The translations under genes were made by a program, and so were the position numbers. From Escherichia coli (GTDB lineage: Bacteria; Pseudomonadota; Gammaproteobacteria; Enterobacterales; Enterobacteriaceae), in assembly GCF_003334785.1 (NCBI RefSeq), contig NZ_QOWV01000002.1: a stretch of 64,000 bases of DNA. The stretch is one strand, 5' to 3'. Positions 15,346-29,687 of the stretch are shown one piece after another (within the stretch, counting starts at the first letter, position 1; every line of letters starts with the position of its first letter). A model generated the notes under the pieces. That model ran no database searches, was not told where the DNA came from, and worked only from the letters and a program-made list of their open reading frames with translations.

Positions 15346-15349
15346 TCTT

Positions 15350-15384
15350 CAGCCCGACGAACTGTTTCGCCGGGCTGATTTTTC
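15350..15384 (+). terminator. Hairpin plus T-run after perM in the perM/focB convergent spacer
   Basis: AGCCCG ... CGGGCT stem followed by GATTTTT. Confidence 0.5.
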
Positions 15385-16252: not shown

Positions 16253-18265
16253 TTACAACACCTCGCGAACCGAGATCCCCAGCCGCTGCATTCGTGACAG
16301 CAGCGTGGTGCGCTTCATCCCTAATCGCGTCGCTGCGCCACGGGGCCCGGCAACAATGCCATTGGTTTCTCGCAATACCTGAACAATGCGCTGACGTTCT
16401 TCTTCGTCATTCTCTGGCGTCGTCGGGTGCAGTAACTGCGCCATTGAACTGCGAAGCGCTGAATCTTCATTTAGCGTCGGCAGTAAACGGCTTTGTCGGA
16501 CATTTAGATGTAAATTCAGACTGTTACCACGAGTCAACAGTACCGCCCGCTCAATCACGTTTTCCAGCTCGCGCACGTTGCCCGGCCAATCCCACGACAT
16601 CAACTGGCGTAGTGCCTCGGTCGGGATGGCGTCAATTGCGCGATTCATATGGCGCGCCATTTTTTGCGTGAAATGTTTTGCTAAAAGAGGGATATCTTCC
16701 GGACGGTCGCGTAGCGGCGGCAATTCCAGTGGGAAGACATTCAGGCGATAAAAGAGATCGCTGCGAAACTGGCGATCTTCAACCATTTGCCACAAATCAC
16801 GGTTGGTGGCGGCAATGACTCTGACATTCACCGGGATCGTTCTACTCCCGCCGAGACGCTCAATCTCCCGCTCCTGCAATACGCGCAGCAGTTTAGGCTG
16901 AAGTTCTAACGGCAGATCGCCAATTTCATCGAGAAACAACGTGCCGCCATCGGCAATTTCAAAACGACCACGATGGGTATTAATCGCACCAGTAAACGCC
17001 CCTTTGTCATGACCGAATAACTCACTTTCCAGAAGACTGGCGGGGATGGCAGCGCAGTTGATTTTGACCAGCGGCTTGTCGCGTCGCGGGCTAAGTTGAT
17101 GGATCGCTCTGGCGATCACCTCTTTGCCAGTTCCGGTTTCACCACAAATCAACACCGTACTGTCGCTCTTCGCCACAATATCTACCTGCTGGAGCAGGTC
17201 TTCCATTGCCTGGCTTTGATAGATAATGTCACCGATGCCCAGATTCGAAAGGAGCTGCTCGCTAAGCTGGTGGTTTTCTTGCTGCAAACTTTCCTGCAAA
17301 TCGGTCATGCTACGCCAGGCATCGGCATTGCCAACGGCAATAGCGATGCGATCGGCTATGTGTTGTAGTAGCTGGCAGTTTTCCTCACTAAAGAGAGTGG
17401 AAGAGGTATGCGCCAGCAACAATGCACCCGGTGTATGGTTGCCAAAGGTAAGCGGTATAAGGAGCGCAGATTCGCAGCCGTTAGATGCAAGTAAGAGTAA
17501 TAACGGGTCGCGTTGCCAGAGAAACAGATCATCTGCACGGTGCGTCAAGGTCGGTTGTCGGGTTTGTAGCGTTTGTGTCAGCAATACACTTTCGCCAGGC
17601 ATACAGCGTGGCAGACACGCACAATGTGAGGCAGAAAGATCGCTGCACCACAGGCTGAACTTCTCGTTCTTTCGATGATCGCCCAGTACCATACTGACTG
17701 AAGCCAGACCGAAAAAATGATGGATCTCACGAGCGACGTCAGCGATCAGATCGTCGAGATCAAGATGTGACAGCACTGCATTAGTAATATCAACCAGTAC
17801 CCGATGATGATCGCGATCTTTCTCCAGCAAACGCAGCGCCACCTGCTGTTCTTCATCATTGAGCCATGATTGCAGAACCGGGGTGATTATCCGCGCCAGC
17901 CAGTTAAACAGTGTGCAATCCTGGGAAGTAAAACGACTGCCGTGGGTGCGAATAAAGCGTAGCTCCGCCATTCCACTACTGCCGAGAAGGACGGCGTGAC
18001 GCGAATAATCGACCATCTCGCCCTGATACTCTGTTGTTGCCGTCACATCGCTGCCATCATCATGGTAGCGGTAATAGAAGTTGCTTTTGAGAACATGCAG
18101 TTCAATAAGTTGTACCGGGCTGAACGGCGGCGGCAGCGGGATGAAGGCGCGTAATAAAGACGCCTTGCCGTGTTTCTGTGCTAACCGCTCCGCGAGCATT
18201 CCGTTTACCGCTTCAATTGTTATTCCTTGTGGCGGGGCAAACATCGCCTCGTCTGACATAGCCAT
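16253..18265 (-). CDS. hyfR: Sigma-54-dependent transcriptional activator HyfR (FhlA paralogue)
   Basis: AAA+ sigma-54 interaction domain (GETGTGKE Walker A, GAFTGA motif in [15 protein letters not shown]), N-terminal GAF-like region, C-terminal HTH. Confidence 0.9.
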
Positions 18266-23914: not shown

Positions 23915-25354
23915 TTACTGCAACCAGGTCGCGGCGATTACGCTGGAAATCAGCGACATCACAATCAGTACAATCAACACCAGGCGCATTGATCCTGGCA
24001 GCGGTGCGGCATCGGCGACGGCCTCGCTCGGTTTGCCAGGCACAACGCGACCAAACCAGCGAATAAACCAGGCGAAACTGGCGACCGATTCAATCATCAG
24101 AAGAATCATGGCGGGCAGCAGGATCCAGTACTCCACTGACAACGCAAAACCGGCAGCAAACAGCGGGAATTTACTGAAGAAGCCGTTGAACGGCGGCACG
24201 CCGGTAATCGCCAGCGCTGCCACGCAGAAACCCACGCCTGGCAACGGCAGGGTGTGCAATACGCCACGCAGACGCGGCAACAAGCGCGTGCCGCAGCTGT
24301 AACTCAGCGCACCTGCTACAAGGAAAAACAGGCTTTTAGCGAACGCGTGGTTGACGATGTAGGCGATGCTGCCCTCCAGCGCCAGCCGCGAGCCGAAGAT
24401 GGAGAGCGACAAGCCGAAGAACATCCAGCCAAGTTGAGTGATGGTCGACCAGGCTAGCAACCGCTTCATATCCTGCTGTGGCAAATACATCAGAAAGCCA
24501 TAAAGAATGGTGACCAGTGCCATGACCATGCCAACGCCGCCAATCACATGCGGGATATTGCCGCCGTCGATAATAGCGCGGGCAAAAATGTAAACGCCCA
24601 CTTTCACCATCGATGCGGCGTGGAGATAGGCGCTGATCGGTGTTGGCGCTTCCATTGCGTCCGGTAGCCACGCTTGCATCGGTAGCTGGGCCGATTTCCC
24701 CCACGCGGCAAACAGGATGCCGCCATAAACCAGATAACGTGCGTCGCCGTGTAACTCGCTCATCGCGCTAAGCGCAAACGTTCCGGTCTGCAAAAACAGC
24801 GTGGCGGCGGCAAGATACAACCCCAACGAGCCGATATGAGTGATAAGTAACGCTTTTAGTGCTGAACGCTGCGCTTTATCGCTCTGGTAATAACTGATCA
24901 ACGCCCAGGAGCAGCCGCCTGTAATTTCAAAAAACAACAACTGACCGAGCAGCGTCGAGGAGAGTACCAGTCCCGCCATCGCGCCGATAAACACCAGTAA
25001 AAATGCGTAATAACGATTCGTGCCGTTATGCGGGTGTTCGCGATTTTTATCCGTCAGATAACCCGTGGAGTAGATCGTGACCAGCAAACCGAGAAACACC
25101 ACCACAAACAGAATCAGCGTACTCACGCGATCAATGACCAGGCCAAACAACGCCACATCCCCCACGTTGACCAACGTCAACGTGACGGCAACTTTATCGG
25201 CCTGATAAAACGCGGAGATCAGTGACAACATGCACAGCGTGGTCAGCGCGGCGAACAAAACCCCCCATTCGGCGGCCCGACGTTGTGGCGAAAACGAAAC
25301 GACCAGTGCGCCGATAAAAGGCAGCAATAACGTCGTCAGAGCAAGATTTTCCAT
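23915..25354 (-). CDS. hyfD: Hydrogenase-4 membrane subunit HyfD (NuoL/M/N antiporter-like)
   Basis: 479 aa antiporter-like membrane protein. Confidence 0.9.
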   Translation of the reverse strand: MENLALTTLLLPFIGALVVSFSPQRRAAEWGVLFAALTTLCMLSLISAFYQADKVAVTLTLVNVGDVALFGLVIDRVSTLILFVVVFLGLLVTIYSTGYLTDKNREHPHNGTNRYYAFLLVFIGAMAGLVLSSTLLGQLLFFEITGGCSWALISYYQSDKAQRSALKALLITHIGSLGLYLAAATLFLQTGTFALSAMSELHGDARYLVYGGILFAAWGKSAQLPMQAWLPDAMEAPTPISAYLHAASMVKVGVYIFARAIIDGGNIPHVIGGVGMVMALVTILYGFLMYLPQQDMKRLLAWSTITQLGWMFFGLSLSIFGSRLALEGSIAYIVNHAFAKSLFFLVAGALSYSCGTRLLPRLRGVLHTLPLPGVGFCVAALAITGVPPFNGFFSKFPLFAAGFALSVEYWILLPAMILLMIESVASFAWFIRWFGRVVPGKPSEAVADAAPLPGSMRLVLIVLIVMSLISSVIAATWLQ

Positions 25355-26328: not shown

Positions 26329-28347
26329 TTAGACGGCAATAGCGATTAGCAGCACAACCAGTGCGGCGACCACATACAGGCAATAGAGACGAAAGTCGCC
26401 GCTTTGCAGATGCTGTATTTCTTTGGCCAGCCGTTGGGTGGCGCTCACGATGGGGCGGATCACCCGCTCATCCCAGAAGGGTTCTGTGCTCTGAGCCCTG
26501 GCGGTGACGTGCGCAAGACCTTTATTTAGCCTCAGCGTAGGGTCGAGCTGTTGTCGTAGACGAAATAGCGCAGAAAAGACCACACGCAGCGGCTGCATCA
26601 CGCCATTGCCTGACGGGGCCATCGCATTTTCCCAGCCGTAGCCGCATGCCCAGGCATCTCCTGTGCGACGAAACGCTGCGCGGCGCGAACGACACCACAG
26701 CCAGTAAAGGCCAGGCAGCAAAGGCATCGCCAGTAGTAACAGCAACAGTAATGAGGGGGTGACCTGTGTATGAAACGTGCCGGGTACAAGTGCTATTCCG
26801 CTGGCGACAGTGGCGGGAGGGGTATTGGTAAACGCATGGGCAATATGCATTATCTTCGGTGCCAGCCAACTGGCACTAAGCGCAATTAATACGCAGAGTG
26901 CCGCGAGCAGTAGCATGGCGACGATCATCGTATTTGGCACTTCCTGTGCCTCTTCAGCGTGTGTACTGCGCGGCGCACCACAGAAAGTAATACCGTACAT
27001 TTTTACGAAGCACATTACTGCCAGCCCACCAGTGACTGCCAGCATTACCATAGCAATAGGACCCGCAAGTTGTAGCGCTACGGCTTCCACACGACTTAGT
27101 GAGAACAGCGACTGCCAGGTGTACCATTCGCTGATAAAACCATTCAGCGGAGGAATGGCTGATATCGCGAGGCAACCAATCAGGCATGCTGCGGCTGTCC
27201 ACGGCATCCGTTTCGCTAGTGCCCCCATTTTTTCCATGTCGTGGGTATGCAAACGCGAAATAATCGCTCCCGCGCCGAGAAATAGCAGCCCTTTGAACAG
27301 CGCATGGTTGAGCAGATGAAACAGTGCGCCGAGCAGTCCAACCACGGTGAGCAGCGGGTCGTGCAGTGACAGACCGACCATCGCCACACCGACTGCCAGC
27401 AAAATAATGCCGACGTTTTCGACGGTACTCCAGGCCAGCAGCCGTTTGATATCCTGTTCCGCCAGCGCATATAGCACGCCCAGGAGCGCGGAGATTGCGC
27501 CGATCGCCATCACCAGAATGCCCCACCACAGAGGCAAACCCGTTTGCGCCAGCAGATCCATCGCTACTTTCAGGATGCCGAAAATACCTATTTTGACCAT
27601 TACGCCAGACATCAACGCCGAAGCGTGCGATGGTGCGGCAGGGTGAGCGCGCGGCAACCAGCTGTGCAACGGCATCATCCCGGCTTTCGCGCCAAAACCG
27701 AAAAAGGCCAGCAGGAACACCGCCGACGCCAGCCCCGGAGAAAGTGAAAGCGTGCGGAAACTGGCAAAATCGAGGCTGCCGCTTTCGCGCCCCATCAGCA
27801 AGAAGGCGATCATTATCAGCACCGATCCGGCGTGGGCGATAAAAAAGTAGAGCATGCCAGCGTTGATCGACGTTTTATCCTGCCTGGCAATGACCAGAAA
27901 CCAGGAAGACAGCGACATCATTTCAAACAGCACGATGAACCAAAAAGCGTTGTCCATCACCAGCAGGGCAACCATCGATGCGATGAAAATATTCATAAAG
28001 AAGCCCATCGCCGCCGCGCCTTTGCCCTCGTATTCGCGCATATAAGTCAATGAATAGAGAGAACAAACCACCACCAGCAAGGAGATAACCAGCACCATAA
28101 ATGCCGAGAGGCTATCCATTCGCAGGGTTAAATCGGCAAATTCAAAAGGGGTGGCAAAACGGGCGACTAAAGTTACACCAGCATGTAATTGCGTAATTCC
28201 GCTGATGATGCCAATCACGCCGCCCACCAGCGATGTGATGCCGGAAAGCTTAATAGCCAGTCTGTCCAGACCGAGTAAAAACAGCGAAGCCAGACTAGCA
28301 AACAGATAGAGAATCAGCGACCAGGTTAATAATTGCAGGGCATCCAT
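26329..28347 (-). CDS. hyfB: Hydrogenase-4 membrane subunit HyfB (NuoL/M/N antiporter-like)
   Basis: 672 aa antiporter-like membrane protein. Confidence 0.9.
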   Translation of the reverse strand: MDALQLLTWSLILYLFASLASLFLLGLDRLAIKLSGITSLVGGVIGIISGITQLHAGVTLVARFATPFEFADLTLRMDSLSAFMVLVISLLVVVCSLYSLTYMREYEGKGAAAMGFFMNIFIASMVALLVMDNAFWFIVLFEMMSLSSWFLVIARQDKTSINAGMLYFFIAHAGSVLIMIAFLLMGRESGSLDFASFRTLSLSPGLASAVFLLAFFGFGAKAGMMPLHSWLPRAHPAAPSHASALMSGVMVKIGIFGILKVAMDLLAQTGLPLWWGILVMAIGAISALLGVLYALAEQDIKRLLAWSTVENVGIILLAVGVAMVGLSLHDPLLTVVGLLGALFHLLNHALFKGLLFLGAGAIISRLHTHDMEKMGALAKRMPWTAAACLIGCLAISAIPPLNGFISEWYTWQSLFSLSRVEAVALQLAGPIAMVMLAVTGGLAVMCFVKMYGITFCGAPRSTHAEEAQEVPNTMIVAMLLLAALCVLIALSASWLAPKIMHIAHAFTNTPPATVASGIALVPGTFHTQVTPSLLLLLLLAMPLLPGLYWLWCRSRRAAFRRTGDAWACGYGWENAMAPSGNGVMQPLRVVFSALFRLRQQLDPTLRLNKGLAHVTARAQSTEPFWDERVIRPIVSATQRLAKEIQHLQSGDFRLYCLYVVAALVVLLIAIAV

Positions 28348-28964
28348 TAGCGTTGCTCCTGAGTGAGGGAAAGGGGATCCTCCCCGCCATTGGCAAACCA
28401 GCTTGCGGCAAGGCGCTGTTTTTCTTTCATCTGACGTTGCAGGCTATCACCGGTGATCAGCCGTAACGCCTGATTCGGGCAAGCGCGAACGCAGGCCGGA
28501 CCTTCTGGCAAGAAATCACACAGGTCGCATTTCACCGCGACGGTCTGGACACCAGGTTCCCAGCGCAGCAAAGCATGTTGTGTTGGCGCGTTTTCTTCGC
28601 CGTCTTTGAGTGAGCCTTCAGCCTGAAAAACATATTGCGCATGGGCATTCACCGGACGGCTTCCTGAAGCGCTGATTGCGCCAAATGGGCAGACCACGGC
28701 GCAAAGCTTGCAGCCAATACAGAGGCTTTCGTTGAGTTGGATCGCATCATCCCTCTGAGAGATGGCATTGACCGGGCAGACCTGCAGGCAAGGGGCTTCC
28801 TCACAGTGATGACACACGACAGGGGCAGTGATTGTTGACGTCTTCGCCAGGGCCAGGCGCGGGTGTTGCTGTAAACCTTGCGTTTTATGCACGTCCGAAC
28901 AGGCAGCGAGACAGGTATTACATCCTGTACACCACAGTGGTTCGGCCACCACAAAGCGGTTCAT
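28347..28964 (-). CDS. hyfA: Hydrogenase-4 Fe-S subunit HyfA (4x[4Fe-4S] ferredoxin)
   Basis: 205 aa from MNRFVVAEPLWCTGCNTCLAACS; multiple CxxCxxCxxxC clusters; the ORF track is extended by 13 codons. Confidence 0.9.
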   Translation of the reverse strand: MNRFVVAEPLWCTGCNTCLAACSDVHKTQGLQQHPRLALAKTSTITAPVVCHHCEEAPCLQVCPVNAISQRDDAIQLNESLCIGCKLCAVVCPFGAISASGSRPVNAHAQYVFQAEGSLKDGEENAPTQHALLRWEPGVQTVAVKCDLCDFLPEGPACVRACPNQALRLITGDSLQRQMKEKQRLAASWFANGGEDPLSLTQEQR

Positions 28965-29005
28965 GTCGGCTCCTTGAAAATGATATGAAACATTGCATTT
29001 CATAT

Positions 29006-29021
29006 TGCATAAAGGATGCCA
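29006..29021 (-). promoter_or_regulatory. Sigma-54 (-24/-12) promoter of the hyf operon
   Basis: Minus-strand TGGCATcctttATGCA matches the TGGCAC-N5-TTGCA consensus with GG and GC at the correct spacing, ~45 bp upstream of the hyfA ATG; the operon encodes a sigma-54 activator (HyfR). Confidence 0.7.
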
Positions 29022-29216
29022 TTCTGATTAACTCAATATATTCAATAAGTTATGTATTAACTGGATTCTGAACGGTACAAAAATGATGGTCATTAACGTT
29101 CAGCAAAAAATGGATTCGACACCCGTGTCGCAGGGGAAAGCGAGAATGTGATCTTGATCACGAGAAGTGAGGTATGCTGGCCGCAAGCGCAGCCAGCACG
29201 GAATGGAGCAAAGTAA

Positions 29217-29687
29217 TCAGGCGTGTTCTTTCAGCCAGTTCAGCACAACGTCGTGGTGATTGCTGGTTTTGAAATCGTCAAAGACATGTTCGATTTTGCC
29301 ATCAGCGTCAATCAGGAAGCTGATGCGATGAATGCCATCGTAGGTTTTGCCCATGAAGGACTTTTCACCCCAGACGCCGAATTGTTCGCACACCTGGTGG
29401 TCCTCATCAGACAGGAGCGTAAAGTTAAGCAGCTCTTTTTCCGCAAAACGGGAGAGTTTTTCGGGTTTATCGGTGCTGATACCCAGCACATCAACGCCCG
29501 CTTTTTTCAACTCATCCATGTTATCGCGTAAGCCGCAGGCCTGTACGGTACAGCCGGGGGTCATGGCTTTCGGGTAGAAATAAACCAGAACACGCTGTCC
29601 CTGGAAGTCGGTCAAATTAACTTGTTCTCCGTCTTGATCCGGCAAGCTAAATTTCGGTGCGATATCACCGGCTTTCAGTGGATTCAT
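29217..29687 (-). CDS. bcp: Thiol peroxidase Bcp (peroxiredoxin)
   Basis: 156 aa; peroxidatic Cys in MTPGCTVQACG; its start overlaps the gcvR stop. Confidence 0.92.
   Translation of the reverse strand: MNPLKAGDIAPKFSLPDQDGEQVNLTDFQGQRVLVYFYPKAMTPGCTVQACGLRDNMDELKKAGVDVLGISTDKPEKLSRFAEKELLNFTLLSDEDHQVCEQFGVWGEKSFMGKTYDGIHRISFLIDADGKIEHVFDDFKTSNHHDVVLNWLKEHA

Follow-up and report, generated by a model that had tools for sequence, protein, structure and literature searches.

The 252-bp spacer between bcp and hyfA, at positions 28965-29216 of the window (by which we mean the whole 64,000-nucleotide stretch of Escherichia coli DNA analysed here), is the already mapped sigma-54 promoter of the K-12 hydrogenase-4 (hyf) operon, hyfAp, an identification that is correct but ordinary. 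Taken as a whole, the spacer is with very little doubt best explained as the regulatory region of this operon, in which a sigma-54 promoter is accompanied upstream by putative sites for an activator, IHF and CRP. This promoter belongs to textbook knowledge of the operon, and finding it adds nothing new, beyond illustrating that a genuine sigma-54 promoter is recognisable from sequence alone. The addition to the known hyfAp is a footprint of its upstream blocks drawn from several genera, which places candidate activator, IHF and CRP sites on particular bases and bares one conserved block without an assigned factor. Footprint and block could help in understanding or engineering the expression of the silent hydrogenase-4 operon.

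The spacer is delimited exactly by the end of bcp at 29217 and the hyfA ATG at 28964-28962, with both genes on the minus strand. Over the surrounding 1.36 kb, identity to E. coli K-12 MG1655 is 100%, and the spacer does not differ in any respect from the K-12 promoter of hyfABCDEFGHIJR-focB, having the same sequence and the motif as given for hyfA in PMC4591121. As annotated, the operon runs on the minus strand from 28964 down to 15383; hyfA (28347-28964, minus strand) is its first gene and hyfR (16253-18265, minus strand) encodes its own sigma-54 enhancer-binding protein, a paralogue of FhlA.

The sigma-54 -24/-12 element, TGGCATCCTTTATGCA, occupies 29006-29021 on the minus strand and is thus oriented towards hyfA. 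Its GG (29020-29019) and GC (29008-29007) are exactly 10 bp apart, as is canonical for the sigma-54 consensus TGGCAC-N5-TTGCW. A preliminary description of this DNA had pointed to a sigma-54 consensus match with correct GG/GC spacing, some 45 bp upstream of hyfA, and had read it as a sigma-54 promoter. The match is indeed present on the hyfA strand, the distance is a fair approximation (41 nt separate motif and ATG, the distance from the GC being about 43 bp) and the reading is both correct and already established (PMC4591121, PMC8743547).

The motif is not significant by itself. TGGCAYN6TGCW is matched once in the window against 1.08 matches expected, and on the 186-promoter Barrios matrix, as printed in PMC7658346, TGGCATCCTTTATGCA scores 12.2 bits and ranks seventh, the six higher-scoring sites all lying inside genes. 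These figures are what would be seen if the match were a functionless product of chance. Set against such a reading are the sigma-54 occupancy recorded at the motif in vivo (PMC4591121), the binding of the holoenzyme in vitro (PMC8743547) and the conservation of GG and GC across genera, together with the invariance of the motif among E. coli alleles; we give the chance reading practically no credence, as it is already refuted by the published binding data. The place and orientation of the motif within the 252-bp spacer have a chance probability of roughly 0.002 and, with the score itself at chance level, the case for a promoter rests on position, orientation and the published data.

Three of the sigma-54-like motifs inside hyf genes (24518-24533, 17826-17841 and 16428-16443, all on the minus strand) score 13.2-13.6 bits, more than the real promoter. 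The last of these, TGGCGCAGTTACTGCA, is found within hyfR about 200 bp before focB. In the main text of Bonocora 2015, a search for 'hyf' returns the hyfA entry of Table 1 only (PMC4591121). A second sigma-54 promoter placed on the second TGCA of the spacer was considered and rejected, as GG is absent 10 bp upstream.

Published evidence for the promoter is direct. Table 1 of Bonocora 2015 lists an intergenic sigma-54 ChIP-seq peak, OS23, with the exact 17-mer ATGGCATCCTTTATGCA upstream of hyfA (FAT score 16), carrying the flag 'C' for experimentally confirmed in EcoCyc; counted 19 bp on from the centre of the motif, the start is predicted to lie 31 nt from hyfA (PMC4591121). Both the binding of sigma-54 at this exact motif and the status of confirmed promoter are thus matters of record. 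In the RpoN-holoenzyme gSELEX data reported by Shimada 2021, the bcp-hyfA spacer is among the strongest binding sites, at 92% of the highest peak and 100% with NtrC added (PMC8743547), and hyf is stated to be FhlA-regulated in PMC7658346, where Skibinski 2002 is cited.

From prediction and literature combined, the hyfA transcription start falls at 28994-28995 on the minus strand, 30-31 nt before the ATG. Transcription from sigma-54 promoters is rpoN-dependent and starts about 12 nt after the GC. A sigma-54 promoter was reportedly predicted for hyf by Andrews 1997, and Skibinski 2002 reportedly mapped a start 30 bases ahead of hyfA by primer extension; purified HyfR is likewise reported to have bound the hyf promoter region in that study. 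With this body of promoter work in print, the experiments proposed in the preliminary description have largely been done already.

To place the upstream sequences in a comparative setting, we used a scan for HyfA with one genome per species, which gave 45 loci, 43 of them with upstream DNA. A -24/-12 match of at least 10 bits is present at 32 of these 43 hyfA/hycB-like loci, and in all but two of the 32 it ends 38-83 nt before the start codon. The bcp-hyfA arrangement is kept in four Citrobacter and two Kosakonia loci, where the whole spacer can be aligned with that of E. coli, and the resulting alignment of seven spacers resolves into discrete conserved blocks with diverged DNA between them. 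Five divergent E. coli alleles have substitutions between the blocks and none inside. The -24/-12 element is unchanged in all five, its GG and GC do not vary in Citrobacter (where the sequence is ATGGCATCCTTTGTGCA) or Kosakonia, and a short AAYGTTT block just after the start, at about +1 to +8, is conserved in the relatives.

A survey of the -12 element in the upstream regions of L004-L047, L049, L050 and L051 also showed that, in promoters of the formate-hydrogenlyase type, the base before TGC is almost always A, G or C rather than the consensus T (as in ATGCT, GTGCA and CTGCT). TTGC at -12 was seen only in two related loci (L033 and L043) and at K-12 hypA.

The preliminary description had also suggested that the DNA upstream of the promoter could hold enhancer sites for HyfR or FhlA, and this suggestion is supported by a palindrome, CGACACGGGTGTCG (CGWCA-N4-TGWCG), at 29117-29130, centred at about -129. 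This is the only match to the pattern in the 64-kb window, where 0.37 would be expected, and it is invariant among E. coli alleles. The pattern surfaced when related promoters were scanned with the published FhlA matrix: with up to one mismatch allowed, 33 of 36 related sigma-54 promoters have it between -83 and -160, where shuffled sequences average 0.8. This enrichment is inflated, since the pattern was defined after looking at the same loci, many of which are close relatives. In Escherichia, Citrobacter, Kosakonia and Atlantibacter the palindrome sits at -127 to -129, and among K-12 promoters known to depend on FhlA it is found at fdhF (-104) and hydN (-94). Because the spacer of the E. coli hyf copy is G-rich, its score on the published 13-site FhlA matrix is low, at 4.7 bits. 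The strict palindrome was not found in the K-12 hyc-hyp spacer, which contains the look-alike stretch CGTCGACACGGCGACGAAATTCAT (compare CTGCGACACGGGTGTCGAATCCAT in hyf).

From these sequence comparisons, the palindrome at about -129 is most likely where the activator would bind. As to which activator this might be, the top NCBIfam match of HyfR is the FhlA model, at 642 bits (below the model's cutoff of 830), and the alignment reaches the C-terminal DNA-binding end, so that a type of site common to HyfR and FhlA is reasonable. A pattern scan had labelled the same palindrome (29130-29117) terminator-like; this label was rejected in favour of a site in DNA, as the minimum free energy fold lacks that stem and the T-run is absent in relatives.

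Between the palindrome and the promoter lies a candidate IHF site, ATTCAATAAGTTA (WATCAA-N4-TTR with one mismatch), at 29040-29052 on the plus strand, centred at about -52. A match is present at the same place in six of the seven aligned spacers and is perfect in three Citrobacter, in DNA whose AT-richness yields such matches easily. The match may be an IHF site between enhancer and promoter. It falls in a stretch, 29022-29075, that is 72% AT, against 52% for 29076-29216 and 47% for the whole window. Of the roughly 200 bp of AT-rich upstream DNA described earlier, the claim accordingly holds for about 55 bp next to the promoter and not for the remainder.

Further upstream, at 29147-29162 and centred at about -160, is a second palindrome, TGTGATCTTGATCACG, which matches TGTGA-N6-TCACA at nine of ten positions; across the seven aligned spacers the agreement is nine or ten out of ten in every case. 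Four CRP-like matches of this kind occur in the window against 1.6 expected. EcoCyc, as quoted in PMC5155068, classes the hyf transcription unit as CRP-cAMP regulated. On this evidence the palindrome is probably a CRP site. Its identity is not certain, given that it is also the best match in the spacer to the published FhlA matrix, at 10.2 bits with the base composition of the window as background; under equal base frequencies the E. coli site reaches 9.9 bits and that of three Citrobacter 11.4. A position of about -160 is moreover within the distance range of FhlA-type sites, and the palindrome might instead be an enhancer site for HyfR or FhlA. We consider this rather unlikely. Conservation extends over the full 16 bp of TGTGA-N6-TCACA, including the outer TG that lies outside the FhlA 14-mer, and the most conserved G of the matrix, in the right half-site, is a C here. 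Also against it is the EcoCyc listing of hyf under CRP-cAMP control (PMC5155068).

Self 2004 reportedly found CRP-cAMP to be required for optimal expression of hyf, which likewise speaks against a HyfR or FhlA enhancer site here. The palindrome also contains two Dam GATC sites (29150-29153 and 29156-29159) 6 bp apart, so that protein binding there could compete with methylation.

Another conserved upstream sequence is an invariant 16-bp block, TGACCATCATTTTTGT (TGACCATCAYTTTTGT), at 29077-29092 on the minus strand, centred at about -90, which, one Y position aside, is the same in the spacers of E. coli, four Citrobacter and two Kosakonia. It is confined to the bcp-hyfA spacers of Escherichia, Citrobacter and Kosakonia; neither the other related loci nor the DNA upstream of K-12 hyc, fdhF and hydN contains it. 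The block is a candidate HyfR-specific or second activator site, and we tentatively raise the possibility, itself not a strong one, that TGACCATCAYTTTTGT might serve HyfR as a recognition element of its own, separate from the FhlA-type palindrome. Were that so, it would explain the unequal activation of hyf by HyfR and FhlA and would give a starting point for explaining the silence of the operon in E. coli. Inspected by eye as an IHF, FNR or ArcA site, the block gave poor matches. In E. coli it is bracketed by a 10-nt inverted repeat, CTGAACGGTA/TAACGTTCAG (29068-29077 and 29094-29103, 90% complementary), the right arm of which is not conserved in relatives.

The block also bears on the proposal that a sigma-70 promoter accounts for some or all hyf transcription, with the -24/-12 element secondary. 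The RpoD-holoenzyme gSELEX study of Shimada 2014 reports a 'constitutive promoter' in the bcp-hyfA spacer, ATGACC (29093-29088) and CAGAAT (29070-29065) separated by a 17-nt spacer, as well as proposing an internal promoter between hyfA and hyfB (PMC3946193), and the -35-like part of the former falls in the invariant block. Both hexamers are, however, poor matches, and a sigma-70 consensus scan of 28800-29400 found no sigma-70-like promoter. Nor is the CAGAAT -10 conserved in Citrobacter or Kosakonia, for which reason the block was also rejected as a sigma-70 -35 element. The -24/-12 element is occupied by sigma-54 in vivo, its promoter is curated as confirmed (PMC4591121), and poor expression or silence is what has been described for the operon. 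We therefore think a sigma-70 contribution improbable and retain sigma-54 as the sigma factor of hyfAp.

The preliminary description had further noted a reiterated ATTGCAT motif in the promoter region. The pair is real: on the minus strand, ATGCAAT (ATTGCAT on the plus strand) is found at 29010-29004 and 28998-28992, 12 nt apart. What the pair lacks is statistical and comparative support. A 7-mer repeated within 20 nt turns up in 420 of 2000 dinucleotide shuffles of the spacer (21%), and ATGCAAT is under-represented in the window, with 10 occurrences against 17 expected. The first copy overlaps the -12 element, amounting to that element plus two bases, and the second overlaps the start. The second copy is replaced by GCTGAAC, GCGTAAC or GCTCAAT in relatives, with only AAYGTTT conserved there, and in one E. 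coli allele the first is ATGCATT. We treat the repeat as coincidence.

An alternative is that the heptamers, with a perfect 8-bp inverted repeat (ATATGAAA/TTTCATAT) that spans 28983-29005 around the start, form a repressor operator over the -12 element and start and so keep hyf silent in E. coli. The geometry is suggestive, with two exact copies about one helical turn apart that fall on the -12 element and the start respectively, and both are kept in four of the five divergent E. coli alleles. Against this stand the frequency of such repeats in shuffled sequence, the scarcity of the heptamer in the window, the divergence of the second copy in relatives, the variant first copy in one allele and the fact that the -12 element itself accounts for the first copy. 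An operator here thus appears very improbable, and coincidence remains our reading of the repeat. NsrR was tried as a candidate for the ATGCAAT repeats and rejected: by eye the half-site matches at 6-7 of 11 positions, and a literature search found no link between NsrR and the hyfA promoter.

Assembled into a working model of hyfAp, these elements would act as follows. RNA polymerase containing sigma-54 would form a closed complex on TGGCAT-N5-ATGCA (29021-29006), and transcription from 28994-28995, about 30 nt before hyfA, would begin only after an AAA+ enhancer-binding protein had remodelled that complex. Either HyfR, the product of a gene at the end of the operon, or the paralogous FhlA would do the remodelling, looping to contact the holoenzyme from a site at about -129 and perhaps from another at about -90. 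The AT-rich DNA with the IHF-like site at about -52 would be bent, allowing the activator to reach the polymerase, and CRP at about -160 would add catabolite control. The assignment of a protein to each upstream block, like the looping, is something we infer from the arrangement of the sites.

Much of this arrangement is shared with known systems. Like the FhlA-dependent promoters of fdhF, hycA, hypA and hydN, hyf has a -24/-12 element with ATGC or TTGC at -12; the fdhF element, TGGCATAAAAGATGCA, is close to TGGCATCCTTTATGCA, and the hyc-hyp spacer has CGACACGG...CGAAAT as in hyf. The upstream CGWCA-N4-TGWCG palindrome is a feature common to hyf, fdhF and hydN. Promoters of this formate regulon would be activated by FhlA or HyfR and induced by formate, low pH and anaerobiosis. 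The hyf palindrome differs from the others in the G-richness of its spacer (CGGG) and in its greater distance upstream, and an activator gene belonging to the operon (hyfR), a CRP-like site and the invariant 16-bp block set hyf apart from fdhF, hycA, hypA and hydN. The order of enhancer, AT-rich DNA with a WATCAA-N4-TTR match and -24/-12 element is also that of IHF-assisted sigma-54 promoters such as nifH and glnHp2, although in E. coli hyf the IHF-like site has one consensus mismatch and is predicted from sequence only.

The borders of the spacer show features of their own. A Shine-Dalgarno sequence for hyfA, AAGGAG, lies at 28970-28975 on the minus strand, within an ARGGAGCC that is present in all seven aligned spacers. 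In a mechanical list of open reading frames, hyfA is 218 amino acids long and begins with an in-frame ATG at 29003, whereas the annotated start at 28964 gives 205. The annotated start is favoured by the AAGGAG site and by cross-species conservation, which begins there, and the longer reading frame would start upstream of the transcription start. At the opposite end, folding predicts a bcp 3' hairpin at 29174-29199 on the minus strand, with an 11-bp G+C-rich stem and a GCUU loop. No U-run follows the stem, and a hairpin with a different stem sequence is predicted at the same place in Citrobacter and Kosakonia; the E. coli hairpin is likely to be a bcp terminator that would insulate hyf. An Rfam scan of 28700-29500 for known RNAs returned only PhrS, inside bcp, at 13.6 bits (E = 0.67).

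Not all E. coli possess the operon. About 1128 of 5426 complete E. coli genomes, ST131 among them, are without the whole hyf-focB cluster, and in these bcp is directly followed by yfgO. The junction lies at a GCTGAA(C/G) microhomology that is present at both ends in K-12 (15347-15353 and 29095-29101), about 13.7 kb apart. Since bcp-hyfA is syntenic in Citrobacter and Kosakonia, the absence of hyf seems to reflect loss by deletion, and not an insertion of the cluster into the other strains. In a hyf-less allele (L002, 2520-2640) the upstream half of the spacer has decayed: CGACAC has become CAACAC, TGTCG has become TTTCA, and 19 bp containing most of the CRP-like site are missing.
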